From IMG/VR virus record IMGVR_UViG_3300010213_000001, positions 52,701-116,700 of that record: DNA of 64,000 nt. One strand, written 5' to 3'. This DNA comes from a virus. Its lineage: Duplodnaviria; Heunggongvirae; Uroviricota; Caudoviricetes. Positions within the stretch are counted from its first letter, which is position 1; the number at the start of each line of letters is the position of its first letter. Below, one piece after another: positions 3,346 to 48,246 of the stretch. The notes beneath the pieces are model-generated. The model worked only from the letters and a program-made list of their open reading frames with translations. It had not been told where the DNA came from and made no database searches. Made by a program: the position numbers and the translations under genes.

Positions 3346-3376
3346 ACAGAATAACAATATTGTTATTCTGTTTTTT
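3346..3376 (+). terminator. Rho-independent terminator (26-bp perfect palindrome + T tract)
   Basis: ACAGAATAACAAT|ATTGTTATTCTGT followed by a T run, downstream of the lysis genes. Confidence 0.7.
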
Positions 3377-3416: not shown

Positions 3417-5231
3417 ATGAAAAAAACTAATAAAAGAATCCCTAAACATGAAAAGGGAGCAGTAATAAAACAAAAGCTAGTTGATTGGTTGAATAAGAAT
3501 GGCTCGTCTATATCTAGAATAGAGGCTGCTGAATTAAGAAAAGGTATTGAGGATCTAAATCCCGATATGTTTTATTCTATAAATGAAGACAAAGAAGGCT
3601 ACTTAACTTTTAAACAAGATGATTCTGGAAAATGGAATGAGTCTTCTGATTTTGGAGCTGGTATTTATAAAAAAGATGGTAAGTTATCAAGGAACAGAAG
3701 TGGATTTCTTCAAACTCTGTCAGGCAACAGAAAGTATGCAGCCTATGGAGGTAGAGAAAACCCTAGAAGAATAAAAGATGCTTTAATTAAGGCTAAGGAG
3801 CTTAATATATTACGCAACATTAAGGATGAAGAAGGTCAATCAAAGAGTACTGATACTACAGGCAATTCTAATGCTGCTACTAGTATAGATGATTTAATAG
3901 GAACTACTCCAACTAATGTTCTAAATAAAAACGGTATTGATTACGTTACTGTTGATGGTCAAGAGATACCTGTTAAGATAGGACCAGATGGTAAAATACA
4001 AAGTATAATCGCAATAGAGGATGTTGCTATTGATGCTGTAGAAGGAACAGGACAAGATGCAAAATTTAAAGATGGGATAGATCCATATACTACAGGAGTA
4101 GACTTATTTGATGAGTCTAGCAATAATCAAGACGCCTCCACATCAGACACTATACCTACTGATGAAGAAGGGAATATTGTATTTACAGACGGTAGACTAT
4201 TTCAAAAGTATCTTATAGATAAAGCTAAGGCAGCTAACATGACCGTTACAGGTAGAATGTTAGGAGTAAAGACTGCAGTTGATACCCACAATGGAGTTCC
4301 TATAGATGGTAAAGTTGGAGATTTAACTATGGCATTAGCAACTAAGTTAGGAGTTGCTGATAAGTGGAAAGGTAATATGTTTAAGAATAAAAAAGTAACT
4401 GTTACACAAGATTCTCCTCAGAATGTTGATGAAGATATTAGTGATGATCCAATTAAAGATAAAGATACTAAATTAAAAGAGATAGAAGATGAAGTAAAAA
4501 GAATAATAGATCCTACTAGCGCACAATATGGATATGTTAAAAGACTACAAGAGTTATTTACTGAGTATGCTAATTTAACTGGTAAGTTTTATCCCAACGC
4601 TGACACACTTCTTAAGATGACTGAACAAGCTAGTAAGACTGAAGATTCTCCAACTTTAGAAGCCAAGATAAGAGATAATAACATGGATCGTGTAAATCAT
4701 GAAGGCAGGATACAATATGGTAATACAGATGATCTTAGATATAAGTTCAGACCAGACATATATACTGGAAGTCAAGGTACTAGCAATACATCCACATCAT
4801 CTACTTCAGTAGACCTTAATCAAGGAAAGCAGATAACTAAAGGTAGTGAATTATTTCCCTTTTTTGGTATAAAGTCAGGAGAATATTCTAAAGAAGATAA
4901 ACAAAAAGACATAGATACACTAAATAAGAAAATAGAAGGATTATCTAGATTTAAAGACAGTAATCCTAAAGCATATGAACAAAGTCTAACTAAACTTCTA
5001 AAAGAATATAAGGAACTAACTGGGCAAGACCATCCTGTAGCATCTATGAAAACTGGAGGTGTTGTAAGTAAGTATGAGAATGGAGGCAGTTTAGACCTAT
5101 CTTATTTAGATGATCTATTAAGTTTCTCAACTAGTTATGAATCTGGCAGCCTACAAGATTACTTTAATAAAAAGAGTGCAAGAAAGGAGGAGTCACAACC
5201 AGTAAATTTTACCAAGAAGGGGGCTCTCTAA
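3417..5231 (+). CDS. Virion cargo/ejection protein, N-terminal part of a putative frameshift fusion
   Basis: 604 aa with no Cys and several xxGG motifs. Contains a PG-binding-like IDGKVGDLTMAL and two helical-hairpin repeats ending EYxxLTG. Confidence 0.6.
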   Translation: MKKTNKRIPKHEKGAVIKQKLVDWLNKNGSSISRIEAAELRKGIEDLNPDMFYSINEDKEGYLTFKQDDSGKWNESSDFGAGIYKKDGKLSRNRSGFLQTLSGNRKYAAYGGRENPRRIKDALIKAKELNILRNIKDEEGQSKSTDTTGNSNAATSIDDLIGTTPTNVLNKNGIDYVTVDGQEIPVKIGPDGKIQSIIAIEDVAIDAVEGTGQDAKFKDGIDPYTTGVDLFDESSNNQDASTSDTIPTDEEGNIVFTDGRLFQKYLIDKAKAANMTVTGRMLGVKTAVDTHNGVPIDGKVGDLTMALATKLGVADKWKGNMFKNKKVTVTQDSPQNVDEDISDDPIKDKDTKLKEIEDEVKRIIDPTSAQYGYVKRLQELFTEYANLTGKFYPNADTLLKMTEQASKTEDSPTLEAKIRDNNMDRVNHEGRIQYGNTDDLRYKFRPDIYTGSQGTSNTSTSSTSVDLNQGKQITKGSELFPFFGIKSGEYSKEDKQKDIDTLNKKIEGLSRFKDSNPKAYEQSLTKLLKEYKELTGQDHPVASMKTGGVVSKYENGGSLDLSYLDDLLSFSTSYESGSLQDYFNKKSARKEESQPVNFTKKGAL

Positions 5232-5238
5232 AGCTCCC
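5185..5238 (+). promoter_or_regulatory. Putative programmed -1 ribosomal frameshift cassette
   Basis: AGGAGG (5185-5190), in-frame slippery heptamer A_AAT_TTT (5204-5210), 8-nt spacer, GC-rich stem-loop GGGGGCT-ctctaa-AGCTCCC (5219-5238). The -1 frame is open into the 5258 ORF. Confidence 0.6.
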
Positions 5239-5257
5239 GAATACTTCCATTAAATAT

Positions 5258-6820
5258 GTGAAGTATGATAAAGGTGGTAAGGTGCTAAGAGGTAGTCCAT
5301 ATTATGATACTGTATTAGACAAAATAATAAATCCAAGTGATAAAGTTTATAATCCTGAATCATATAGTGCTATTCCAGTAAGTGAAATGGAGAAGTTCAA
5401 AGCTAATAGAGACAATAGAATGCAGCCTAAGGATATTCTCAATCCAAATAATGATAAAACTAAGTTATTAGGAAATGATAATAAAGAGAGAGAACTTGAT
5501 ATCTTATCACCTAATAAAACTTCTGATTTGGAAAATGTAGGTGGTTTATCGCCTAATGATAATACTAGAGAATTGGATAGAAAGGGCTCAAGTTTTGAGA
5601 ATACCGGCAACAGACAAAATCAAGATATAGCTAACAAAGTTAATTATGGAACTGGGTTAGACCATACTACTGCTCAATATGTAACTGCCATAGGAACATC
5701 AGCTGCCAATTTTGGATATGTCCCACAAAGAAAGAATGTAAAAAGAAATGTATTTATTAGTGATATAGAAAAGAAAGCTTACAATTCTTTGCAAAATAAG
5801 ATGAATCAGCAATTTGCTGATCAAAGATCTAGGACACCTAAGACTAGTGATGCTACATTGAATACTCTATCTCAACAAGCGACAACAGAGAATGCATATC
5901 AACAAAATCTAAGCTTAGCACAGTCAGAAGCTCAAGATATTAATAGACAGAAAGATTTACAATATGGACAACGTATGCAAGCTGATGCACAAAGAGTAGC
6001 AGAATTAAATCAAAGCATTGCTATTGATAATGCAGAAGCACTAGCTAAAGATAAAGCTAAAGATATGTTTAGAACTACTGTAGCTCAGACTACTATGGAT
6101 TATGCAGATACTAAGAAACTTGAAAAGGAACAACAAAGACAATTAGCTGAGAATTTATTTATTAGTAAACAGAACCAAGAAATTGAAAAACAAATATCTG
6201 AATTATCAAACAAGAAAGCTAAATTATTAGGACCTGCTACACAAAGAGATAGAATTAACTATGCTTTGTCTATAGGTCAAATAGACGATGCTCAAGTACA
6301 AATAGCAGCTAAGAATGCCATAGATCAATTTAATACATTATATCCAGAAGATAAAGTATCCGACTTCGCATCTCTGGATTCAGCTTTAACACAAAAAATA
6401 AATGATTTAGATACTGAGATGGGGAATCTTAGAGAAGCTGCTAATAATAATGCTTTAGAGATAAGAGCTAAGGGTGCGTTAGTTCAAGGATATCAGTATG
6501 CTCCAACAAGTAACCAATACGGACATTTGAATAATTCATCAACAGGACAGCAATTCAATCCTAATAATCCAATTGGAAAACAATTGTTTAAGAAAGGTGG
6601 TAAGACTAAATCAGATTATCAATTTGAAGCTTATAAACATGAATTGAGAAAAGAAGCAGCAAGAAGTAAGGAAGAAATGAAATATGATAATGCTGCTAAA
6701 ATAGAACAGTTAAAAATTTCAATGAAAATAGCAGAGAATAATATAAGAAATTTTACTAAATCAATAGAAGCTTACAATAAAGATATACATAATATATATA
6801 ATAAGGGCAAGAATAAGTAA
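5258..6820 (+). CDS. Coiled-coil virion cargo protein, probably the -1 frame extension of 3417..5231
   Basis: Only a GTG start; the frame is open upstream to 5171. Q/N/K-rich helical sequence with YDKGG and FKKGG motifs. Confidence 0.6.
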   Translation: MKYDKGGKVLRGSPYYDTVLDKIINPSDKVYNPESYSAIPVSEMEKFKANRDNRMQPKDILNPNNDKTKLLGNDNKERELDILSPNKTSDLENVGGLSPNDNTRELDRKGSSFENTGNRQNQDIANKVNYGTGLDHTTAQYVTAIGTSAANFGYVPQRKNVKRNVFISDIEKKAYNSLQNKMNQQFADQRSRTPKTSDATLNTLSQQATTENAYQQNLSLAQSEAQDINRQKDLQYGQRMQADAQRVAELNQSIAIDNAEALAKDKAKDMFRTTVAQTTMDYADTKKLEKEQQRQLAENLFISKQNQEIEKQISELSNKKAKLLGPATQRDRINYALSIGQIDDAQVQIAAKNAIDQFNTLYPEDKVSDFASLDSALTQKINDLDTEMGNLREAANNNALEIRAKGALVQGYQYAPTSNQYGHLNNSSTGQQFNPNNPIGKQLFKKGGKTKSDYQFEAYKHELRKEAARSKEEMKYDNAAKIEQLKISMKIAENNIRNFTKSIEAYNKDIHNIYNKGKNK

Positions 6821-7310: not shown

Positions 7311-7703
7311 ATGGCAACCAATAAGAAAAACCTTAAACCTACTAATACTAGATCTGGCAATACTAAAGCTAAAGGCGCAAACTTCAAGAAAGAAGAAATA
7401 ATATCAGTATCAGATAAGCTACTAACAACAATACAAGAGTCCAACAAGAAGCTAGTGGATGTTATCCATTTACTACTAAAACTTAAAGAAGATCAAGATA
7501 TCTATGTAGTTAATGTTGGAGACGACAATACTAAGTGGTCATTCATAATATCAGATGTAGAAGATCCAGCTAAAGATATAAAGTTTAGAGTTGATTATGA
7601 ATTCAACCCACTTGAACTTGAAGTTAGTATTATAAACACAATACTTATAAGTCAACTAGAGCTAATAATTAAAAGTAGTGTACAACCTTCTAAAGTCCTA
7701 TAA
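7311..7703 (+). CDS. Hypothetical protein
   Basis: 130-aa ORF with a basic N-terminus, flanked by hairpins. Confidence 0.55.
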   Translation: MATNKKNLKPTNTRSGNTKAKGANFKKEEIISVSDKLLTTIQESNKKLVDVIHLLLKLKEDQDIYVVNVGDDNTKWSFIISDVEDPAKDIKFRVDYEFNPLELEVSIINTILISQLELIIKSSVQPSKVL

Positions 7704-7722
7704 TTTATAGGACTTTTATTTT
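7692..7722 (+). terminator. Terminator hairpin overlapping the stop codon
   Basis: AAAGTCCTATAA-t-TTATAGGACTTT followed by a T-rich tract. Confidence 0.6.
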
Positions 7723-7847: not shown

Positions 7848-9719
7848 ATGGACAATACATTTGAAGATATAAGTTTGGAACAATATGATGAAATAGACGC
7901 AACATCTATTTATCAAGAAGGTGGAACTTTTGAAGTACCATCTTTCCAGCCTGTTGTACGGCAGTTTAACCCTGTACAAATGAGGTTTAATGCTCAAGAA
8001 TCAGATTTCATAAAGAGTCCTGGTATACCTCAAATACCAGATATAGACTATGATGGGTTAGATAAACTACAAGGTAAGGGGCATACAAATGATGTAAATA
8101 ATTACATAAACTCTAAAAAGCAAGCACAATACGAGCTGCAAAGTTTAGTTACCAAGTATGGATACGAAGCCACTAAGCTGCCTATATTTGGAGAGATGAT
8201 AAATAGAATGAAAGTTGATCCCGCAGAGCTTAATGAATTAATAGTTAGAAAAGAGATGTCTAAGGAGTTTGCTGATATTAATAAAGCTAATGGAGGGGAA
8301 AACGAATGGGTAACTGATGCTAATGGTAGTATACTAGTACAAAACAGTGAAGGAAATTATGAATATGTAGATCCCTATGTATTAATGACGTCCAAAGATA
8401 AAGTTCCTATAACAAGTTCAGATGCAATACAAAGAAATGATAGAGATAATAAACTAACTAGAAATCAAGATATTATGCCTGCTGTTGCCCAAGTTTGGGG
8501 CGGGGATAAAGCTCTAGATCATCTTAATTCACAATTAGATAAGATAGGATCTACAGAGCGTCAAAGAGCTAGTGAAGCCATAGCTGGATTAGGTAATTTA
8601 AATGGTTCAAATGTATTTGGTAAAGCTGGATCAGATAGAACACTATCATCAAATGAAAAGCAAGTAATAGATTTGTATCAGTCATTAATGAGAACCATGG
8701 ATACAGCAGCTAAAAATTACTTTAGAAATAAGGCTATACAATCTATAGGTAAAGTTGATTTAGATAGAGAAACATATGAGAGAGCAGTTAATGAAGCCAC
8801 TGGCAAGCTAGTATTATCTTACGTTAGTAAAGTTCTAGACACTAAAGACATATCTAAAAATACAGTTGATATTGATGCTACTCTAACTAAAGGAATTAAA
8901 GGCGGAGCAGGTTGGGAAATGCCAGATGAAGCTGAGTGGCTAATGTCTACAGCTCAAGGATACTATATGCGAGAAGTAGATGGTAAACTAGTTGTAGATG
9001 ATGGTTGGGATAAATCTAATATTTATAATTATGATCCTGAAACTGGTCAAATGATGCAGACAGACGCTTATTTTTATACTGATTTAGGACAAGAAGAAAA
9101 AGAAAGAGTTCAGCAGCCTATTGGTACTTCATTAGAAGGAACAAGAGTACAATTTAATTCTGGAATACCAGTAACATTAAAAGGCGGTATTCAAGCTGGA
9201 GCTAATCCTCAATTGATAGGATTTATAGATAAAGATGGTAGACATCAACTTAAAGTAAAGACAGCTGGAGTTTTCAAAGCTAGTGAACTAGAAGGTCAGA
9301 CTATAATGGTTTATAATAAAGAAAAGAGAAAGTTCGAGAGTCAACCTATTGTACAAGATGGAGAGATAACTGATGCGGCAAAGCAATTATTAAAGGCTAA
9401 AGAAGTAGTAGGAGCAGGAATGTTTTTTGGAAATAGTAGAGATGAGGGTATTGAGACCCTTGTAGCAAATGGATTCAGTAAAGAAGAGGCGGAAGCAATA
9501 GTAGCTCCCACTGATAAATGGGGACCAAGTGATGAAGGTATGTATGTGATACCATTTATGGATGACTATACAACAACTCAAGCACATCAGAGAAATCATG
9601 GAAAGGTAGCAAATAGAAAACAATTGTCATTGGAGAATAGAATAAAAGTTAGTGGTGCTCAAGAAGCACAGCAAGCTGAAAATCAAATTAGAGAAATGAG
9701 TATCCGTCTAGGATTATAA
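7848..9719 (+). CDS. Virion cargo/ejection protein
   Basis: 623 aa, Cys-free, N-terminal YQEGG motif. Sits immediately before the giant proteins, as in crAss-like genomes. Confidence 0.6.
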   Translation: MDNTFEDISLEQYDEIDATSIYQEGGTFEVPSFQPVVRQFNPVQMRFNAQESDFIKSPGIPQIPDIDYDGLDKLQGKGHTNDVNNYINSKKQAQYELQSLVTKYGYEATKLPIFGEMINRMKVDPAELNELIVRKEMSKEFADINKANGGENEWVTDANGSILVQNSEGNYEYVDPYVLMTSKDKVPITSSDAIQRNDRDNKLTRNQDIMPAVAQVWGGDKALDHLNSQLDKIGSTERQRASEAIAGLGNLNGSNVFGKAGSDRTLSSNEKQVIDLYQSLMRTMDTAAKNYFRNKAIQSIGKVDLDRETYERAVNEATGKLVLSYVSKVLDTKDISKNTVDIDATLTKGIKGGAGWEMPDEAEWLMSTAQGYYMREVDGKLVVDDGWDKSNIYNYDPETGQMMQTDAYFYTDLGQEEKERVQQPIGTSLEGTRVQFNSGIPVTLKGGIQAGANPQLIGFIDKDGRHQLKVKTAGVFKASELEGQTIMVYNKEKRKFESQPIVQDGEITDAAKQLLKAKEVVGAGMFFGNSRDEGIETLVANGFSKEEAEAIVAPTDKWGPSDEGMYVIPFMDDYTTTQAHQRNHGKVANRKQLSLENRIKVSGAQEAQQAENQIREMSIRLGL

Positions 9720-9734
9720 TATAAATAAAACATT

Positions 9735-12700
9735 ATGCCAGAACCTAAAAAACTTAATAGAGAGATAGACTTCAGTAAAGTTATTGAAGCTGGAATGCAA
9801 TCAGGTAGTACATTGTCACCTATACAATTAGCTGGGTTATTAGATTACGAAAAGACTAATTTTGGAAGTGCGACTACTTTTAAGTTAAATGAAGATAATT
9901 TAAGTCAGTATACTCCTGAAGTAAAGAATAAAATAAAAGACTTATATACTCAAACACAAGCAGTGTATGGAGCATATAAACAAGCTGGAGCATTTCCAAT
10001 AAAAGCACCTAGATTTGGTAAAAATAAGGTAATGGAGCTATTCTATCCAAATATGGAATACTCTAAAGGTATAAAGTATGATGCTCCAGATTTAGAGTTC
10101 TACTGGAATGGTAGTATGGTTCCTTCTAGAAATATGACTAGTCAAGAGATTAGAGATATAGCACCATTCTATTTAGATACTAAGGCAAATGAAATAAAGT
10201 CTCTAGATAAAACTAAATTAGAGCAATTTTCTGATGGTTGGAGTTTCTCTAATATTGGACAAAGTTTTATCAATGATCCTTTAAAAGCTATTAAAACAGG
10301 ATTAGGCATTGAATTACCAAATGTAAATGACAGTATTGCAGATCTTGGGTTTTCTACTAATCCTAAACTAGCTGTAGCTAATTATGGTGATATTGCTAAG
10401 CTTAATACAGAAGAAGGTAAAGCAGCTGCACAAATGTTAGCTTTAGGTATTGTTAATCCTAGAACAGAGTATAAGAAGAAAGCTGATGATGGTGCTGAAT
10501 ATTATTTATGGAAGACATTAGATGAAACACATGATAGTTTCCAGGAAGAAGTTAGAAGTGTGTGGGGTCCTAAGACTATGTACCACAATAACTACTTTTC
10601 AGAAGGATTAGAGGCTGCTAATGACTTTTTAATGAATAGTTTAGATGGAGCTAATTTTATATTTAACTATGCTCCAAAGAAGATTATAGGAGGATTAGGA
10701 TCCAGATATTTATTTGATGGCACATTTGATAAGCAAATAGAGAAGGAATATAATGCTTATAATGCTTGGTCATCTTCTAGGAAATCTCAAGCATCTGAAG
10801 AAGATGCTGAATCTTGGACGTCTAATCCTATTAATTTTACTAAAGGTATAATAGATGGAGCTGCTCAACTAGCATTGACATTAGCAACAGGAGGGCTTGG
10901 AAAAGGGCTAGTATGGGGAATGGGTAAAGCATCAGCTTCATTAAGTGCTAATAACTTATTAAAGTTGTCTGCCAGACGAGCTCAGAACTTGGTTACTGTT
11001 CCAGCTACAGCTTATGGATATTCTTATGCTGCCTCCGCAGCCAATAAGGAGGCTCGTCAAGCAGGAATAAACCCTGAAGCAGCTATGATTATGTCTGGAA
11101 TAGCAGCAGCAGCTATAGCTGGTTCAGAGCGATTAACTGGTGGTAATTGGGTAAAGAAGTTATTAGGTAAAGATATAGCTCAAGGATATGGATCTAAAAT
11201 AGCTAAGGAACTAACAACAGAAGTTATGAGAGCTAATAGATTAAATAATACTAGCTTGATAACATCTGATGTATTAAACTCTGAAGCATCCAAAGGAGCG
11301 ATTAAGAAAGTTTTAGGTGCAGCATATGATTATATATCAAAAGATGCAGAGACTAGAACAGGAGCGTTATTACAAGGATTCCTAAAGGAAGGTGTTCAAG
11401 AGTTAACTGAAGATAGTATAAATAAGCTTAGTCAAGCAGGTTTTAATCTAGTTGGAGACATTACAAAGAAAGTTGGACTTGATTGGATAAATGATAAAGA
11501 AAGATATAAGATAGAAACTAATAATCTATTTGAAGACTTATTAGGTTCATTTGTTATTGGTGGTATTGTAGGAGGTGGAGCAGGTGCTATGCTTCATTCT
11601 AAACCTAAGGTCGATGAGCAATTAGAAAATAATAGATCATATTGGTTAGTTGACTTAGCACTAAAAGGAGAGAAAGAACAAGCTAGATTCTTTGAAGAGT
11701 TAGAGGATATGAAAAAGAACGAGCTTTTAGGTATAGCTGACTTATCTGCAGAGGTTGATAAAGATAGTAAAAATGGATTAGTTAGAAAGCTATTAGGCAA
11801 TAAGGCGACAAGAAAGACATCAGATTTAGAGATAGATGACAATGAATTTAATTATAATTTATTTAAGGCTAAAGCAGAGTTTGTGTTTGGTGAAACAGCT
11901 AGAGTTAGTAAGTTATTAGAAGATTCTATTGGAGAGCCTATAGATAGAGCTAATAAGAAAACTGCTGGATTAATTTCTGATATATTAGGATTAAGTCAAG
12001 AACCAACTTCAAATGAAGGTATGTTCTCTATTAAATCTTTATTACCAGAATACAACACTAATGTAGTAACTATAAAAGACTCAGAAGGTAATCTAGTAGG
12101 TATAAGTCAAGAGAGATATGATGAGATTACTCAGGGAAAGTCTATTGAAGAGATTAATAAAAACTTTAAGATCTTAACTCCATTAGAAAGAGCTCAAGAG
12201 GAGGCTAGAATACTAACAACATCGCTTAATCAAGCAATACATTCAGAGAGTATTTTTGTTAAATCTCAATTAGAGAAAACAAATAATAGAATAGCTCACT
12301 TACTACAAACTAAAGAGAATAATGCCGACAGTAAACTAGCTGCCATTAACCCTGATAATATCATATCATACAATGGTAATATGAAGGCTATTAAACGGGA
12401 AGATAGTAATGAAATAGATAACACTGAAGCATATTTTGATAAAGAAGTAAAATTAGAATTCTCAGAAGCTCAAAAGAAATTAAGAAATTTAGAAGAAGAT
12501 AAAGATATAAGAAAATCAATTAATTCTATTAAAGATCTAGAGAAACAGTTAGAAGAGTTAGAGTTTAGATCTAAGAGAGAACCAGAACTAAGAGAGTTTC
12601 TAGATAAACAAAAAGAAGACAAGTTAAAAGAAATCGAAGTTGCAGAAACTCAATTACATGAACAAATAGAGCAGAAGGGATTAGTATCTAGTGCTAAAAT

Positions 12701-15700
12701 AAAAGACTTAGTATCTTTATTAAGAACAAAAGATACTTACAATAATTATTTAACAAATAACTTAACTACTAGACTAAATTACTTTAAAACTAAATCTATT
12801 ATTAATGCGGCTGCTTTTAATAAATTAGGTAATTTAATTAGTAAAGCTGCTGAGAATGGAGTATCTAAGAGAATTTTATCTCCTTACACAAAAGAAGAAA
12901 AAGATAGAAGAAAGAGATATTATGTTAATAGAATTAAGTCCGAAGAGCAAGCAGCTAAAAAGCTAAATGAAGAACAGAAGTTAAAATCTACGGAGTTAGC
13001 AAAGAAGATAACTGAATCTAAAGAAGGCTTCACAGAATCTATTGCAGAAGAACTAATTAAATATTTTGAAGAAAATCCTTTAGCTGGTAGAACTCAGGAA
13101 CTATCAGACTTACTTATTGAAAATGTAACAGATATTTCAGCAGAAATATCAAAGTTATTTCAGGGTATTAGCCAATATGCTGTTGATGAAGCATTCTTAA
13201 TACAGTTAGATGGTCAAACAACTGTGCCTGGTATATTAAACTCATTAGAAAAGCAGGCACTAGCTTATAAAGAGTATAATGATACATCTGAAGTAATAGA
13301 AGCTGCATCTACATCTTTTAGATTACTATCAGATTTATTAAATAATCTAAATAATAAAAATATATCTTCTAAACTATTAGAAATTAAGAAAGCTTTAGGA
13401 ACAACTGAAGTATTTCCTTTAATTCAAGAACTTATAACTTTAGTTGAGACAGAAGTAGAAAATGTAGAAGAGTTATTGAAAAAGAGCAAGTTTGATACAG
13501 ATACTAACTTTCCAACCCCAACTATTTATGAAGCTTATACAGAAGTAGATATATCAAACAGTATAGAAGAATTTATACAAGATATAATTAGAAGTCATAG
13601 TGACAACACTATATATAAAAACATAATAGAAGATTTTAAGTCTACTAGTGATAATCCTAAAGCATCCAGAATAAATTTTGTTAATAGATTTAATAATAAG
13701 CTACAAGGCATCCTAAAAAGAGATATCCTTGGTGATGTTACTCAAGAAAAAGAAGAGGATCTAGAGAAAGAGTTTTACTTAAATGATCATTCTATTCTAA
13801 TAGATAACAGAAATATAGCTATTCCTACAGAAATAGAAAATAATCTTAGATCATATTTATTAGATGAATGGGATGAGATAGATGTCAATAAATTAACTGA
13901 GAATGTTAAGAAGTTGTACGAGCCATTACTTTCTATAGTACTAGATCATTATGTTGATAAAGTCAATGGTAATACATTACCAAGCTCTATATTTAATGAA
14001 GATTCTAGTATTGATAGATTATTACTAGATAGATTAACTTCAAGAGTAGATGAAGAAGGTAGATTAGAACTAGAAAAAATCTCACGAGTGTATCAAGAAT
14101 TAGTAATGTATAATGCTTCAAAAGTAGAAGGGTATACAGACATGAAGTTGGAAGATTTCAGTGCCTTCTCTAGAGCTGTGTTAAGTATATTAACTGGAGA
14201 GCAAGTTATAGAAAAGGTAGGACTAAAACTAAAGTCAAGACTTGTACAAGATACTGAATATAGAGCTAAGTATCTAGATTACTATTCTAAATTACTAAAA
14301 GAAATAAATAGCTTGTTAGATGAAGACGATGAGACAAACACATTATTAGATACACTATCAAATAATATAATTGACCTAGAAACAGAATTAGGAATAAAGT
14401 TAAATGAAGATCTTCCTACTGAAGAAGGTAAATCTAAAGAAGTAGATTCAGCAATTAATGTGTTGTTATCAGATTTAAAAACTATAGAACTACAAGTTAG
14501 TAATAGGATTAATAAATTACCAATAGGTGAATTAAATACATTAATTAGAAAGGTTACTGAAGATTATTCAGCAGAAGCAATAACCAATTTATATAAAACT
14601 GAGAATGGTGAGATTGAATCTCCACTAATGCCTAGAACTAAGTTATCTACAGAAGAATTAGAAGCTAAGATTAATTTCTTACAAGCATTATATACAAATA
14701 AGCTAGATAAGTTTTATACAGCACTCCACGATACTGTCAAACTAACTAACTTTAATGAGGATTTTATTAGTACATTTGAACAGCAACAAGTAACTAAAGG
14801 ATTGTATTCATTATACTCTAATAACAAGAGAAACGCTTTTCATAAAGAACTATCAGCAATTATAAATGAAGCTAATATTAGCAAGAAGTCTGTTTTTTAT
14901 AATGATCAAGGAATACAAAGAAATGTCAAATCTAATAAAGATAGAATTAGAGCATTATCAAATATGATGATGGTAAGAGGATACGCTGGAGTTGGTAAGA
15001 CTACCTTTGTTATAAAAGAAATTATGAAGATTTTGAGTCAGTTGGAAGACTATAAAGGAAGAAAAGTTAGAATATTGGTATCAGCTCCTGGAGCTAGTCA
15101 ATTAGAAACTATAGGTAAATCTGTAGCTGAATTACAAGATTTCTTAAAACAGAATAACATAGATAATATAGAGATAAGTCTTAAGAATCTAGATTATATC
15201 AAGAGTACAGAAAATTTAAGTAGTTTGTATGATTCAATCATTATTGATGAAGCAACTTTAGTATCTAGACAAGATACTATGCATAATATTACTGGTAGCA
15301 TTAGCCTATTAGATAGATTAATTGAATTTGGTAAGCCAGTAATTTTAACTGGAGATGAAATTCAAAAAAGTAATGGTGACTTTGGATCTAGTCCTTGGAC
15401 TAGAGGGAATCCTTCAGCTGCTTTTTACATACCAAGGACAACATCTTTAGTTAATCCTATGAGAACAGGTAAGATAGACTCTTTTAACTTACAAAAGAAT
15501 CTTATATCCTCTATTGTAGAATTATCTAAATTAAATGAAATTTATATAAGAGATGGTGTGGATTATGTTGCGTCTAATAAGGATATTATAAAGTTATTAG
15601 GTAGTAAGCCAATAAAAGTTAGTAAATCAAACTTTGCTAATATTGCTGCTAGAATACTAATTAATACTCTTTATAAGCCCACAAATACTAGATTCAGTGT

Positions 15701-18653
15701 TAAATCTGGAGATATAGAAGAGGGTGTTAGAGTACTAAAGAATGGACTGAGTAACAGTGTCGCTTCTTATTTTAAGACACATATACAAAATGATCCTAAC
15801 AGTGGAGCTAGATTAATTGTTATAAATCCAGACCAAAAAGATAGTTCTGGAGAGGAGAAATTAAAAGAACAGATAAGAAAGCAGTTTGATCTACCAGCAA
15901 ATATGATATTAACAGCAACTGAAGCACAAGGTAAATCAATTGAACATGTTTATTTGTATACACCTGAGAGTATAGATATGGATTCTTCTACACTACTAAT
16001 GTTCTTAAAAGATCTCTTTGTTGGTATTAGTAGAGAGAAGAAGTCCGTAACATTATCATTGCCTAGTATAACTGGAGTTGATAGTGCTATAACTAATGGA
16101 GTGAGTTCTATTTCTGTTGCCAATAATACTTTAATTAATAAGTTTACATCATCTTTAGGTGAAGATGGTAAGATAAATCAAGACTTACTAAATAGACAAA
16201 TATCTACTGTGAATCTACTAGAACTTTATACAAATAATATAAATAATATTAGTGATGATTCTTCTACTGAAGAAGTTGATACTCCTCTAAAACCTAACAA
16301 ACAAACTACTGATCAAGGAGAACCAGCGTTGGCTATAGATGTCTCTAAAGACAAAGTATATAATATAGACGATGCTCCAGACATTAAGATAAGCAAGTTA
16401 GAAGAAGAGATAGCTACACTAGAAAATGCTTTAACTAAAGCAACTGAAGCTAATAATCAAGAAATAATAGATAGGATAACTCCTATATTAAACAGCTTAG
16501 TACAGGATAAGTCAGACATAGAACGTGCACTTGAGTTGGCTCAGGCAGCTTCTGCAGAAAGTGTCAAATTATCTGATAGGGTGGAGCTTGGTATCAAATT
16601 AGTATGGTATTCTATAGATAAAGAAGGAAATAATATATATAGTGATATTATAGTAGAAAATATAAATAGAAACAATAACAGAGTGACTATTAGAGTCGTG
16701 GATACCGATTCTACAGTAGAATTAAATCTATCAAGTTTAGATAATACTATATCCAATGTTCCCGTTTTCCAGTTACCTGGAGAAATGTTACAAGTACAAC
16801 AGACAGTTACTATTAATTCTTCTCAATCAGTTGTTGAACCTACTACTAGTAAACCAGACAAGATAGATAAAGTGCAGGAGAAAGATGATATAGTTATTGG
16901 AACTGAAGTTCAGGTTTACAACACAAAAACACAAACTTATAAATCTAGTCATGTTGTTGAAGTATCAGCAAATAGTATAACTATAAAATTTAATAGTGGT
17001 ACAATTGCTAGAGTAAAAAGGAACAGTTTAAACAACAAGATTGGAAGTATTCCTCAATATAGAATAATTAAAGATGTAGAAGATGAGCAGGACTTGAATA
17101 GTAAGATAACTAATAAATTAACTTTCTCTCCTCTAACAATTGCTGAAGATCAAGAAGTAAGCAAGATTGTAGAGAATTTTAAACTATTCTTAGAAGACTT
17201 GTTTAACCAGAACAATCAATTAATTAGTCAAGACTTATTCTCTGATCTTACAGCTCTAGTAGGTTCTTTTGTATCGACATTAGATACTAAACTAAATCAG
17301 GCTATATCAGATGGTATCATTTACATGATATCTAAAAATAATTATATAGTATTGAATGGTAAGAAGGTTAGATATAATAGAACTCAAGTAGTTAATGACT
17401 TTACAAAAGTAGCGTATGATGTAGTCAGAGAGTACAGACAAAAGTATATAGATAGTAATGAAAATGTTGAAGCTGACTCAATTGTTGAATTGTTAGATCA
17501 TATTATAGGATCGATAGGATCAGTTAAAATAGCATTATCTAATAATATTAAAGCTAAAATAGATTTATTTAATTCCAAATCTGTAAATGTGAGTAAGTCC
17601 ACTAGAACTGTAATATCAGAAGAAACATCAAAAGCTGAAGATAGAAATGAGCAGGAGTTTAAGGAAATATTAATGTTGAATGGAATTTTAACTCCAGCAA
17701 TAGAAAAACAAATAGATAATTTTAGTAAGTATGTCTTAGGTGTAGATAGTGTAAAATACACAAAGGCAGATATACAAAATATAGCAGATACATCTATAGA
17801 AAAGCAGGGAAATAAGACTATACTCAATATAATTATATCTACTAGAGATATAACAGATAAGAGTGCTATTATGCCTTTAATTGCTTATAAATTAACTAAT
17901 AGTATTCCAGCTTTAGTAGATGAAGATCTTATGAATTACATTCATTTTAGGGGAGTTGGTAGAGTACCTAATAGTGTATTTTATAGCGACTCCAAAGTCA
18001 ATTTTGCGTCTATGTTTTATCCAGTAGTTACTAAGTTTTTTAGTGCTGTTGAAGCAGACAAATTAAGATTAAATAGTGCTATTAATTTAGCTGCAAATAA
18101 CTTACCAAAAAATAAACAAGAGCAGTTTAAAAGATTAGTGAGTGAAGATGTATTCTCAGATAGGATTATTCGTATCTTGTCACAAGAGCCTATGACATCT
18201 AAAGAGAAATTAGAATATAATAAACTATTGTTTTCTATCTTAAAACAAATATATAAAGATCCTAGAATAGCTGACGTTGCTAGAGGTTTTAAGTTAATCA
18301 ATGAAAATGGAGAATCTATATCCTTATTAGGAGAAATAACTAGAGTCTCTATTGAGACGATAACTATGGGTAAGAAAGGAGTAATAGATAACTTACAAAG
18401 TATAATAAATACTATAACTGAATTAAGTGCATTAAGAATGGAACATGCTAATATACATAGTTCTGAAACAATAATTGTTGAAGAGCAAAACGAAACTACA
18501 GAAAATAAAATAGAGAATGAATTAGCTAATGATTTTGAATTAAATGAGTTAGTGATAAAGGAGGAGTCTATGATAGATTTAATCAATACTATATCTACAG
18601 CATTAGATACTGATATACCTTTAGATATTCAATTCTTTAAAAACTGTTTATAA
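9735..18653 (+). CDS. Giant ejected virion protein with membrane-channel-like N-terminus and SF1 helicase domain
   Basis: G/A-rich hydrophobic segments and EGVQELTED at aa ~370-620. SF1 motifs: GYAGVGKT (14979), IIIDEA, LTGDEIQ, MRTG, TATEAQGKS, FVGISRE. Two SH3/Tudor-like repeats; sole Cys at the C-terminus. Confidence 0.75.
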   Translation: MPEPKKLNREIDFSKVIEAGMQSGSTLSPIQLAGLLDYEKTNFGSATTFKLNEDNLSQYTPEVKNKIKDLYTQTQAVYGAYKQAGAFPIKAPRFGKNKVMELFYPNMEYSKGIKYDAPDLEFYWNGSMVPSRNMTSQEIRDIAPFYLDTKANEIKSLDKTKLEQFSDGWSFSNIGQSFINDPLKAIKTGLGIELPNVNDSIADLGFSTNPKLAVANYGDIAKLNTEEGKAAAQMLALGIVNPRTEYKKKADDGAEYYLWKTLDETHDSFQEEVRSVWGPKTMYHNNYFSEGLEAANDFLMNSLDGANFIFNYAPKKIIGGLGSRYLFDGTFDKQIEKEYNAYNAWSSSRKSQASEEDAESWTSNPINFTKGIIDGAAQLALTLATGGLGKGLVWGMGKASASLSANNLLKLSARRAQNLVTVPATAYGYSYAASAANKEARQAGINPEAAMIMSGIAAAAIAGSERLTGGNWVKKLLGKDIAQGYGSKIAKELTTEVMRANRLNNTSLITSDVLNSEASKGAIKKVLGAAYDYISKDAETRTGALLQGFLKEGVQELTEDSINKLSQAGFNLVGDITKKVGLDWINDKERYKIETNNLFEDLLGSFVIGGIVGGGAGAMLHSKPKVDEQLENNRSYWLVDLALKGEKEQARFFEELEDMKKNELLGIADLSAEVDKDSKNGLVRKLLGNKATRKTSDLEIDDNEFNYNLFKAKAEFVFGETARVSKLLEDSIGEPIDRANKKTAGLISDILGLSQEPTSNEGMFSIKSLLPEYNTNVVTIKDSEGNLVGISQERYDEITQGKSIEEINKNFKILTPLERAQEEARILTTSLNQAIHSESIFVKSQLEKTNNRIAHLLQTKENNADSKLAAINPDNIISYNGNMKAIKREDSNEIDNTEAYFDKEVKLEFSEAQKKLRNLEEDKDIRKSINSIKDLEKQLEELEFRSKREPELREFLDKQKEDKLKEIEVAETQLHEQIEQKGLVSSAKIKDLVSLLRTKDTYNNYLTNNLTTRLNYFKTKSIINAAAFNKLGNLISKAAENGVSKRILSPYTKEEKDRRKRYYVNRIKSEEQAAKKLNEEQKLKSTELAKKITESKEGFTESIAEELIKYFEENPLAGRTQELSDLLIENVTDISAEISKLFQGISQYAVDEAFLIQLDGQTTVPGILNSLEKQALAYKEYNDTSEVIEAASTSFRLLSDLLNNLNNKNISSKLLEIKKALGTTEVFPLIQELITLVETEVENVEELLKKSKFDTDTNFPTPTIYEAYTEVDISNSIEEFIQDIIRSHSDNTIYKNIIEDFKSTSDNPKASRINFVNRFNNKLQGILKRDILGDVTQEKEEDLEKEFYLNDHSILIDNRNIAIPTEIENNLRSYLLDEWDEIDVNKLTENVKKLYEPLLSIVLDHYVDKVNGNTLPSSIFNEDSSIDRLLLDRLTSRVDEEGRLELEKISRVYQELVMYNASKVEGYTDMKLEDFSAFSRAVLSILTGEQVIEKVGLKLKSRLVQDTEYRAKYLDYYSKLLKEINSLLDEDDETNTLLDTLSNNIIDLETELGIKLNEDLPTEEGKSKEVDSAINVLLSDLKTIELQVSNRINKLPIGELNTLIRKVTEDYSAEAITNLYKTENGEIESPLMPRTKLSTEELEAKINFLQALYTNKLDKFYTALHDTVKLTNFNEDFISTFEQQQVTKGLYSLYSNNKRNAFHKELSAIINEANISKKSVFYNDQGIQRNVKSNKDRIRALSNMMMVRGYAGVGKTTFVIKEIMKILSQLEDYKGRKVRILVSAPGASQLETIGKSVAELQDFLKQNNIDNIEISLKNLDYIKSTENLSSLYDSIIIDEATLVSRQDTMHNITGSISLLDRLIEFGKPVILTGDEIQKSNGDFGSSPWTRGNPSAAFYIPRTTSLVNPMRTGKIDSFNLQKNLISSIVELSKLNEIYIRDGVDYVASNKDIIKLLGSKPIKVSKSNFANIAARILINTLYKPTNTRFSVKSGDIEEGVRVLKNGLSNSVASYFKTHIQNDPNSGARLIVINPDQKDSSGEEKLKEQIRKQFDLPANMILTATEAQGKSIEHVYLYTPESIDMDSSTLLMFLKDLFVGISREKKSVTLSLPSITGVDSAITNGVSSISVANNTLINKFTSSLGEDGKINQDLLNRQISTVNLLELYTNNINNISDDSSTEEVDTPLKPNKQTTDQGEPALAIDVSKDKVYNIDDAPDIKISKLEEEIATLENALTKATEANNQEIIDRITPILNSLVQDKSDIERALELAQAASAESVKLSDRVELGIKLVWYSIDKEGNNIYSDIIVENINRNNNRVTIRVVDTDSTVELNLSSLDNTISNVPVFQLPGEMLQVQQTVTINSSQSVVEPTTSKPDKIDKVQEKDDIVIGTEVQVYNTKTQTYKSSHVVEVSANSITIKFNSGTIARVKRNSLNNKIGSIPQYRIIKDVEDEQDLNSKITNKLTFSPLTIAEDQEVSKIVENFKLFLEDLFNQNNQLISQDLFSDLTALVGSFVSTLDTKLNQAISDGIIYMISKNNYIVLNGKKVRYNRTQVVNDFTKVAYDVVREYRQKYIDSNENVEADSIVELLDHIIGSIGSVKIALSNNIKAKIDLFNSKSVNVSKSTRTVISEETSKAEDRNEQEFKEILMLNGILTPAIEKQIDNFSKYVLGVDSVKYTKADIQNIADTSIEKQGNKTILNIIISTRDITDKSAIMPLIAYKLTNSIPALVDEDLMNYIHFRGVGRVPNSVFYSDSKVNFASMFYPVVTKFFSAVEADKLRLNSAINLAANNLPKNKQEQFKRLVSEDVFSDRIIRILSQEPMTSKEKLEYNKLLFSILKQIYKDPRIADVARGFKLINENGESISLLGEITRVSIETITMGKKGVIDNLQSIINTITELSALRMEHANIHSSETIIVEEQNETTENKIENELANDFELNELVIKEESMIDLINTISTALDTDIPLDIQFFKNCL

Positions 18654-46626: not shown

Positions 46627-48246
46627 TTAAAACTCAGTTGGGTTGGTGCTAGGTATACTGTAAACTACTCCCTTAGATAATAGAAGAAGAGAAGCAATAG
46701 AAGCAGCATTTTCAAGAGCCAAACGAGATACTTTAGTTGGGTCAATAATGCCGTTATCTATTAAGTTCTCCATTGTATATGTATGAGCATTATATCCCAT
46801 ATTGAAATCAGCACAATCTATAATTTCCTTTTCAGGAACTTGATAATCTTTGCCAGTGTTAGAGATAATGGCTCTAAATGGTGACTTTATAGCTTCTAAT
46901 ATAATCTTAAATCCTTCTTCTTCCCCCTCATTTAAACATAGATCTTTGTAGGTTTTACCCAGCTCATATGCTATTCTTAATAAGGCAACGCCACCACCTG
47001 GTACTACACCTTCTTGTACGGCTGCACGAGTTGCGTGAAGAGCATCATCTACTCTGTCTTTTTTCTCCTTCATTTCTACTTCTGTCGCTGCACCTACACT
47101 TATAACTGCTATACCTCCAATTAATTTAGCCAATCTTTCTTTTAGCTTATCTAAAGTAATTTGAGAGTTAGCATTTCTTACTTCAGTCTCTATCTCCCCT
47201 TTAATAAAGTTTATTCTCTTACTTATCTTTTCTTTATTTCCAGCTCCATCCATTAATAGTGTACTACTCTCTGAGACAATAGCTGTTTGTACTTTCCCTA
47301 AATCTGATAGACTTACATTATCTATAGACACTCCTCTAGTTTCAGAAATAAAGGTACCTCCAGTTAATATTGCTATATCTTCTAATACATCAGATCTTCT
47401 AGATCCAAAATGAGGTGCTTTAATAGCGACTACATTAAGATTAGCTCTCGTCTTATTCATTATAAGTAGACTTAGAGCACTAGCTTCAACTTCTTCCGCA
47501 ATTATTAATAAAGAGCCACCATCTTCAATTAGCTCTTCTAGAATAGGTATTAATTCTTCAGCTTTTGATAGCTTTTTATCACAACAAAGAACATAACAAT
47601 CTTCATAAGTAGCTGTACTATTTTCTTTGTTTATAAAGAATCTACTTGTAGATAGATAGCCTGTAGATAGTTCCATACCTTCTACAATCTTACACTCTAA
47701 TTCTGATGTATTTCCTTCTTCTACTGTGATAACGCCATCTTTTCCAACTTTATCCATCGCATCAGCAATCATTTTACCGATTTCCATGTCGTTATTGGCA
47801 GAAATTGCACCTACTTGTGCTACTTCTGAAATTGAAGAGATTTGTTTTGATTTTAATCTTAGACTCTCAACTATCTCTGTAACAGCTTTGTCCATACCAC
47901 GTTTCAAATCCATTGGATTTGTTCCAATCGTAACGTTTTTGATACCTGCATTAAAGATAGCTCCTGCTAGAACTGTAGCAGTAGACGTTCCATCGCCCAC
48001 TGCATTAGATACTTTTGAAGCTACTTCTTTTACAAGCTGTGCGCCCATATTTTCGATAGGGTCAACTAAACTTATGCTATTAGCTACTGATACACCATCT
48101 TTAGTAAGGACATATTCTCCGTACCCCTTGTCAAGTATGATGGGAGTACCACTTGGTCCTAATGTGGCTGAAACAATGTTTGCTAATTTATCAATTCCTT
48201 GTTTTAATTTTTGTCGATGTTCATTAATTACAATTTCCTTTTTCAT
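46627..48246 (-). CDS. groEL: Chaperonin GroEL (Cpn60)
   Basis: TLGPSG, TKDGVSVA, GDGTSTATVLA, NPMDLKRG, VGKDGVITVEE, KDRVDDALHATRAAVQEGVVPGGG, GIIDPTKV. No GGM tail. Confidence 0.97.
   Translation of the reverse strand: MKKEIVINEHRQKLKQGIDKLANIVSATLGPSGTPIILDKGYGEYVLTKDGVSVANSISLVDPIENMGAQLVKEVASKVSNAVGDGTSTATVLAGAIFNAGIKNVTIGTNPMDLKRGMDKAVTEIVESLRLKSKQISSISEVAQVGAISANNDMEIGKMIADAMDKVGKDGVITVEEGNTSELECKIVEGMELSTGYLSTSRFFINKENSTATYEDCYVLCCDKKLSKAEELIPILEELIEDGGSLLIIAEEVEASALSLLIMNKTRANLNVVAIKAPHFGSRRSDVLEDIAILTGGTFISETRGVSIDNVSLSDLGKVQTAIVSESSTLLMDGAGNKEKISKRINFIKGEIETEVRNANSQITLDKLKERLAKLIGGIAVISVGAATEVEMKEKKDRVDDALHATRAAVQEGVVPGGGVALLRIAYELGKTYKDLCLNEGEEEGFKIILEAIKSPFRAIISNTGKDYQVPEKEIIDCADFNMGYNAHTYTMENLIDNGIIDPTKVSRLALENAASIASLLLLSKGVVYSIPSTNPTEF

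Follow-up and report, generated by a model that had tools for sequence, protein, structure and literature searches.

The locus considered here raises the question of whether two overlapping open reading frames (ORFs) in the late region of a phage genome are two genes, or one gene whose second half is reached by programmed -1 ribosomal frameshifting. The window, that is, the whole stretch analysed, comprises 64,000 nucleotides (nt), bases 52,701-116,700 of IMG/VR record IMGVR_UViG_3300010213_000001, a single virus sequence of 244,700 bases with 30% G+C and an estimated completeness of 96%; positions are window coordinates unless marked genome. ORF1 (3417..5231, plus strand) occupies the zero frame and encodes 604 amino acids (aa), and ORF2 lies in the -1 frame, which is open across 5171-6820. 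A first-pass annotation had proposed that a frameshift at the heptamer A_AAT_TTT fuses the two, giving products of 604 and 1134 aa. Our analysis supports this proposal, and we consider it probable that -1 frameshifting at A_AAT_TTT yields both forms, a prediction favoured by fused relatives, by the placement of the frame switch from codon usage and by the predicted occlusion of the first listed start codon of ORF2, a GTG.

All parts of the proposed cassette were confirmed in the sequence, on the plus strand. The slippery heptamer A_AAT_TTT, of the X_XXY_YYZ type, lies at 5204..5210 in frame with ORF1 (AAT at 5205 and TTT at 5208, encoding Asn597-Phe598), ahead of the zero-frame stop, and is the predicted shift site. 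A Shine-Dalgarno (SD)-like AGGAGG (5185..5190) is located 13 nt ahead of it, with a function that is doubtful in an SD-blind host. An 8-nt spacer (5211..5218) leads to hairpin 1 (5219..5238), the predicted 3' stimulator, which consists of 7 base pairs (bp) including one G-U pair and a 6-nt loop, is built from rare codons, has a predicted fold of -11.9 kcal/mol and carries the zero-frame TAA (5229-5231) in its loop. It is followed by hairpin 2 (5241..5266), absent from the first-pass annotation and of 10 bp with one bulge, which pairs over the GTG at 5258-5260; it is predicted to disfavour independent initiation there, possibly adding to the stimulator. A pseudoknot was considered and rejected, the loop complementing only 4-5 nt located 50-80 nt downstream. 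Counted from the shift site, ORF2 (5210..6820) contains 536 codons in the -1 frame, or 520 aa if read from GTG 5258, so that the two products would be 604 aa (67 kDa) and 598 + 536 = 1134 aa (about 127 kDa). The start of ORF2 carries two Gly-Gly motifs (5210-5224 and 5264-5278), followed by a low-confidence linker and long helices. The first of these, YQEGG, had been described as a perfect copy of a cargo motif; it does agree in every letter with a motif in the 623-aa ORF at 7848 (residue 22). "Cargo motif" is a descriptive label.

To find relatives, the -1 frame was used as the query against 1.84 billion representatives, and three were found besides the window's own protein: P0002 (518 aa), P0004 (1100 aa) and P0005 (1213 aa). 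P0004 and P0005 are fused and colinear with the locus, with an ORF1-like N-terminal half and an ORF2-like C-terminal half. ORF1 matches residues 1-506 of P0004 (35% identity, E 2e-82) and residues 19-571 of P0005 (32% identity, E 9e-71), and ORF2 is 42% identical to P0002, 35% to residues 609-1084 of P0004 and 34% to residues 671-1208 of P0005. The closest relative (41-42%) is P0002, which is encoded on a 5.6-kb contig from another source and begins at the second Gly-Gly motif of ORF2, as would be expected if it were split at the same place as here; the contigs of P0004 and P0005 measure 25 kb and 65 kb. Since two of the three relatives are single ORFs spanning both halves, a full-length product appears to be a normal state in the family. 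These results answer a check that the first-pass annotation had called for, namely whether homologs are fused, and on these alignments ORF1 and ORF2 are read as the halves of one protein. An intron was rejected as the cause of the split, the junction having no intron-sized extra sequence when compared with P0004 and P0005.

Both fused proteins have SQGFFKQGG at the junction, as compared with the predicted transframe sequence SQPVNF followed by YQEGG. P0004 (residues ~580-603) and P0005 (residues ~645-668) are identical at 19 of 24 positions there, within a middle part that is otherwise poorly conserved (best elsewhere 13, median 6), and this block could reflect a signal at the nucleotide level. 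DNA of the relatives was not confirmed in viral contigs, metagenome contigs, prokaryote genomes or named phages, a search from which near-identical records may escape. A pattern scan for a heptamer running into the motif returned 26 loci, none with the cassette anatomy and none related by tblastn, and a back-translated junction pattern returned 13 metagenome loci, all GC-rich and unrelated, and no viral loci. No ORF1-only relatives were found with fewer than 8,000 candidates scored per search; since P0004 and P0005, although in its length range, were themselves missed by the alignment search, this negative is uninformative.

The point at which the frame switches was then located from codon usage and alignment. 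In a test trained on other late genes, the zero frame was favoured across 5175-5210 with a log-ratio of +6.6 (mean of true-frame windows 5.5, n = 183), a value attained by 0 of 392 windows in which the -1 frame is coding, and the running codon-usage sum peaks at 5205-5208, i.e. it turns at the heptamer. With P0004 as the reference, placing the switch at residues 594-602 gives alignment scores of 86-91. Codon usage and the P0004 alignment together place the switch in about 5205-5222. The alternative shift site suggested earlier, AAA_AAG at 5169-5174 (as T_AAA_AAG, 5168..5174, plus strand), was rejected, because the zero frame remains coding through 5175-5210, the P0004 score drops to 64-65 for a switch there and no stimulator is near. 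The AGGAGG and AAATTT might instead simply result from the coding of Lys-Gly-Gly and Lys-Phe in the -1 frame, an idea discarded because codon usage over 5175-5210 rejects that frame. Reading the same segment in the -1 frame would moreover add Cys, of which the count is 0 in all five family proteins.

Controls for chance were performed on the cassette and its parts. Hairpins 1 and 2 together (5211-5280) fold at -21.9 kcal/mol (z -3.8), and 0 of 200 shuffles were as stable. Genome-wide there are 292 in-frame X_XXY_YYZ heptamers, and when these were ranked for a hairpin starting 5-9 nt downstream within a 36-nt span, a setting that misses long stems, the A_AAT_TTT site ranked first. It is also among the four heptamers with an upstream SD 5-mer and among the nine followed by a -1 frame of at least 100 codons, and it is the sole case among the 292 in which the top hairpin, the SD 5-mer and the long -1 frame are combined. 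In a looser scan of the 69 heptamers in the window, one other site folds slightly more strongly (-12.2 kcal/mol) and has just 20 open -1 codons. A second control used the 687 runs of five or more A or T in intact genes: a hairpin of -10 kcal/mol or lower follows 3 of them, AGGAGG precedes none and an SD 5-mer precedes 10. The seven codons that form hairpin 1 are matched in atypicality by only 27 of 72,806 seven-codon windows, and the building of the hairpin from rare codons suggests selection on the RNA.

A second candidate cassette is present in the genome, outside the window. The heptamer A_AAA_AAG (genome 179018-179012, minus strand) stands directly before the TAG of a 297-aa gene, which adjoins the family A DNA polymerase gene and encodes a probable membrane protein with a hydrophobic N-terminal half. 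AGGAGG lies 7 nt upstream, which is shorter than the usual range, and a stem starting 4 nt downstream folds at -27.3 kcal/mol (z -3.2; 2 of 200 shuffles as stable). The -1 frame that follows has 233 codons, the first ATG occurring 73 codons in, and no relatives and no family were found for its products. On their sequences, two junctions of like anatomy would be harder to explain as random errors, the second being equally a candidate.

The main rival explanation is that the locus was one ORF of 1134 codons and that a single base has been lost from the T4 run (5207-5210) or the G5 run (5219-5223), either as an assembly error or in a defective genotype. Both runs lie within the interval 5205-5222 to which the switch was assigned, two relatives are fused, and deleting one T from a run that follows AA would be enough to produce the X_XXY_YYZ pattern. 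The window's two proteins are each found on only two contigs from one source, perhaps from the same assembly. Several further observations weigh against frameshifting. Two of the three relatives would not need a frameshift for the long form, and the heptamer and hairpin were read from a single genome. The split of P0002 is read from a predicted protein, and a contig edge, the choice of the gene caller or a true Met start could mimic it. The alignment to P0005 is flat (67-76) and does not separate switch points, and with P0004 a switch inside the G run (residues 600-602) scores equally well. Taken alone, hairpin 1 is short and non-significant against its own shuffles (z -1.6 to -2.2, with 17, 7 and 15 of 200 folding as well in three windows). 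In gut crassviruses, ten genes at matching positions showed no such cassette at an internal junction, the sole strong hairpin lying at codon 18 of one of them.

A lost base nevertheless leaves much of the locus unexplained: the rare-codon hairpin exactly 8 nt after the run, for which the run and codon controls gave the low frequencies above, the upstream AGGAGG and hairpin 2 over the GTG, the beginning of P0002 at the same place, and the second junction of the same anatomy in the genome. In addition, adjacent ORFs of 1554 to 4649 codons are intact. Twenty other genes longer than 500 aa (74 kb, with 208 homopolymer runs of at least five) are likewise unbroken, a control that is partly circular, these genes having been defined as open frames. 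We regard the loss of a base as improbable, and frameshifting at the heptamer as the better account of the two ORFs.

The next alternative is a completed gene fission. ORF2 would then be initiated separately at GTG 5258, or through translational coupling with the stop at 5231, and the cassette would be a relic or a coincidence. The GTG lies 26 nt past the stop of ORF1 and two codons ahead of the first block conserved in all relatives, the Met of P0002 is at nearly the same position, and other functions of the cargo block seem dispersed, as with the N-terminal part of the crAss001 C1 cargo protein, which matches a separate 301-aa gene here. GTG 5258 is the first in-frame start codon listed in the -1 frame and is poorly suited to initiation: its start-context score is matched or undercut by just 23 of 240 ATG-started genes, and the fold around it is equalled in stability by only 2 of 240 gene starts. 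GTG begins only 2 of the 33 non-overlapping ORFs listed for the window, and the other of the two has an ATG start of 128 aa. The first ATG, at 5387, has a worse context (1 of 240), and a start there would drop the block conserved in all four sequences. Fission would also leave untranslated the clean YQEGG upstream of the GTG, which aligns with FKQGG of the fused relatives. Independent initiation of ORF2 is unlikely on the predicted folds and start contexts, and fission as a whole is very improbable. Transcriptional slippage sites usually need longer homopolymers. Slippage by a polymerase adding a base on A3T4 or G5 would give the same two products, and the phage probably has large polymerase-type genes of its own (judged from position; no catalytic DxDxD was found), but the runs here are short and the phase of the heptamer and its 8-nt spacer suit the geometry of the ribosome (5-9 nt in the available part of PMC5009743), so we consider this the least probable of the alternatives, close to negligible.

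Frameshifting at A_AAT_TTT would proceed as follows. Ribosomes would pause at hairpin 1 while AAU UUU is occupied by the Asn and Phe tRNAs. In some of these ribosomes both tRNAs would slip in tandem and re-pair on AAA UUU, and reading would go on through the 536-codon frame to give the 1134-aa protein. Non-slipping ribosomes would stop seven codons after the Phe, in the hairpin loop, giving the 604-aa protein. Stimulation would come from hairpin 1, perhaps with hairpin 2, and help from the SD-like sequence would be little or conditional. Both forms would be internal virion (cargo) proteins at a ratio set by the shift, the C-terminal helical region being present only in the long form.

The SD-like sequence is the weakest part of the cassette. 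Its presence, and its spacing of 13 nt, stood as first annotated, and the spacing falls inside the 9-14 nt given for SD-like sequences upstream of -1 sites (PMC5009743, in the part available); that it acts on the shift is doubtful. Few gene starts here have an SD-like 4-mer (6 of 240) and A is found at -3 in 68%, a pattern that fits, and points to, a Bacteroidota host. Bacteroidia ribosomes sequester the anti-SD, and in Flavobacterium johnsoniae the prfB frameshift normally proceeds without SD pairing, being enhanced only with mutated bS21; the prfB SD is nonetheless maintained across several orders, with a small effect on fitness (PMC10798248, in the sections available). Some Bacteroidetes phages encode bS21 (PMC9723584, from the accessible portion), and no match to bS21 was found in this genome. 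A contribution of the SD to the shift is therefore something we lean against, allowing it a minority chance.

A more speculative extension, to which we give a low probability, is that cargo proteins of two lengths arise in this family from one and the same junction by mirror-image recoding, a -1 slip extending the protein here and truncating it in the fused relatives. If the SQGFFKQGG block were encoded with GGT TTT TTT AAA, slipping by -1 would bring ribosomes immediately onto a TAA and shorten the product. The codons of the Glu-Gly-Glu/Asp that precedes it could contain AGGAG at an upstream distance of 13 nt, equal to the spacing here. If this were true, frameshifting at the joints of Gly-Gly modules would be a general crassvirus way to set cargo stoichiometry, and SD-type stimulators would be at work in a phylum where ribosomes usually disregard them.

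The role of the protein was approached through motifs, structure prediction and gene position. ORF1 contains aromatic/Met-x-x-Gly-Gly motifs at residues 544 and 553, with variants at 11 and 574. The wider aromatic/Met/His-x-x-Gly-Gly pattern occurs 10 times in the 6,842 aa of a 13-gene block, as compared with 26 times in 67,917 aa outside it, and eight C1 cargo proteins have 3-6 copies each; the motif is undescribed in the available part of the crAss001 structure paper, where the word "motif" occurs once, in a reference title (PMC10172136). Five aromatic-x-x-Gly-Gly motifs are also present in a 1044-aa gene (genome 18040-21174) far from the cargo block, which ends on A_AAA_AAG with a 259-codon -1 frame and no hairpin. 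Searches of Pfam and PHROGs gave no meaningful family for ORF1 or ORF2. The AlphaFold model of ORF2 (pTM 0.28) consists of a low-confidence linker and long helices, and its comparison with known structures gave no PDB match at E 0.001 or better, the Atlas hits all being below 0.9.

Relationship to C1, the family of crAss001 gp45 (PF25725), was therefore examined by profile and by pairwise comparison. No PF25725 candidate was found in the genome, and a profile of eight C1 sequences and its sub-blocks missed ORF1, ORF2, P0002, P0004 and P0005 (hhalign probability under 1%). The transmembrane-like N-terminal segment that is a C1 trait was not found in either ORF, the top 19-residue hydropathy being 0.87 in ORF1 and 0.51 in ORF2. 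A weak pairwise similarity connects ORF2 with the C-terminal part of gp45 (23%, E 6e-5), together with an Atlas lead at 0.85. The 301-aa gene mentioned above (genome 50106-51011), which follows the 1960-aa gene, matches the N-terminal ~270 positions of the C1 profile (E 1e-15), and because of this match the functions of C1 may be spread over several genes here. The locus sits in the cargo-block position before a C2-sized gene and giant genes, with two small genes intervening, and in MT835470 and MT835492 one gene fills this position (1554 aa or 1474 aa), with weak similarities among the neighbours. Gene position and the Gly-Gly motifs together point to a cargo role. The protein probably acts as an internal cargo or scaffold in the manner of C1, but the profile tests gave no match to the C1 family itself.

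The phage is crAss-like on the evidence of its major capsid protein, which shows 20-28% identity to crassvirus capsids in all 20 records matched by tblastn, most of them annotated capsid genes of "cr" phages, and which matches crAss001 gp32 (E 9e-6). The gene order, similar to that of crAss001 and of two gut phage records, runs from the capsid through ring-sized genes and the 1960-aa virion structural gene (PHROG 15100, for which "muzzle" is merely a positional label) to the block of motif-bearing genes and ORFs of 2972, 4649, 2529 and 1554 aa. An alternative genetic code is unneeded here, the long ORFs being already open under table 11; in the public record MT835492, long ORFs appear only with TAG read as Gln. 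The 2972-aa protein (9735-18653) has a superfamily-1 helicase-like AAA domain at about residues 1743-2106, and the giant ORFs of 4649, 2529 and 1554 aa occupy 18664-44973. A simple pattern search of the giant genes for the catalytic DxDxD motif of RNA polymerase gave only an Asp-rich stretch, and crAss001 gp47, gp49 and gp50 as phmmer queries gave no match to them, though they sit in the expected place. A GroEL chaperonin is encoded at 46627-48246 (minus strand), with ATP-dependent ligase, ribonucleotide reductase and rIIA/rIIB-like genes nearby. Terminator-like hairpins, recognised by consensus match only, are located on the plus strand just ahead of ORF1 (3346..3371) and after the two small genes behind ORF2 (7692..7716); hairpin 1 was rejected as a terminator, being absent from the three terminator-like sites.

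If the proposed frameshift is real, recoding serves to express what is probably an internal cargo gene of a crAss-like phage. Gene callers would then annotate two unrelated hypothetical genes, and the long form would be missed. The locus would also supply a natural -1 cassette of compact size in a translation system that lacks SDs. With it one could ask directly if an SD can promote -1 shifts by Bacteroidota ribosomes during elongation; published work has addressed the +1 site of prfB. The fused and split forms in one family would raise the question of why the virion needs two lengths of one cargo protein.

Compared with known systems, the locus has the features of the dnaX/IS3 type in its in-frame heptamer, the predicted hairpin at 8 nt and the conserved -1 continuation in P0004 and P0005. 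The dnaX shift truncates the protein, whereas the predicted shift here would extend it. The cassettes of Escherichia coli dnaX and the IS3 family (IS911) are alike in having an SD-like sequence 9-14 nt upstream, a heptamer, a 5-9-nt spacer and a 3' stem-loop; they differ in the heptamer, which is A_AAU_UUU here and A_AAA_AAG there, and in the stem, of 7 bp here and 11 bp in dnaX (PMC5009743, in the part available). The probable host here is also SD-blind, unlike in that type. Frameshift extensions are described in the same source for phage proteins, including lambda gpG/gpGT, T7 and T3 capsid gene 10, and capsid and tail proteins of Lactobacillus A2 and Listeria A118/A500/PSA; as proposed here, some of the ribosomes shift near the end of a late gene and thereby add a C-terminal domain, and related phages can have such a domain in frame (PMC5009743, likewise), which the fused relatives of this locus resemble. 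In contrast to them, the gene here is not a tail chaperone, capsid or tail subunit, and the 536 aa added are predicted to be helical rather than immunoglobulin-like and restore the full length of the relatives.

For C1 itself, the likeness lies in the position shared with crAss001 gp45, flanked by a tail-end structural gene and by a ~60-kDa gene with giant genes behind it (PMC10172136, in its available part), in the repeated aromatic/Met/His-x-x-Gly-Gly motifs and in the weak similarity of ORF2 to the gp45 C-terminal part. The difference is that the protein here has neither a profile match nor a transmembrane-like segment, the C1 N-terminal profile matching another gene. Eight of nine C1 loci are single ORFs, and the ninth (cr112_1) is annotated as three genes, among which its RefSeq copy names an endonuclease. 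Full-text searches, which covered few subscription papers and no supplements, showed no report of frameshifting in cargo proteins, in ejection proteins or in any gene of crAss-like phages; the accessible passage of bioRxiv 10.64898/2026.08.21.746148 is a general remark. The closest functional analogy is to the carboxysome proteins CsoS2A and CsoS2B, the short and long forms, made by frameshifting, of a likewise largely disordered, motif-repeat shell protein, which differs in that the in-frame product is the long one and the shift truncates it (PMC10484944, in the sections available), a shell role being only suggested here and no relationship in sequence being implied. The mechanism itself is textbook, and the gene class is new for it as far as the literature was searched.

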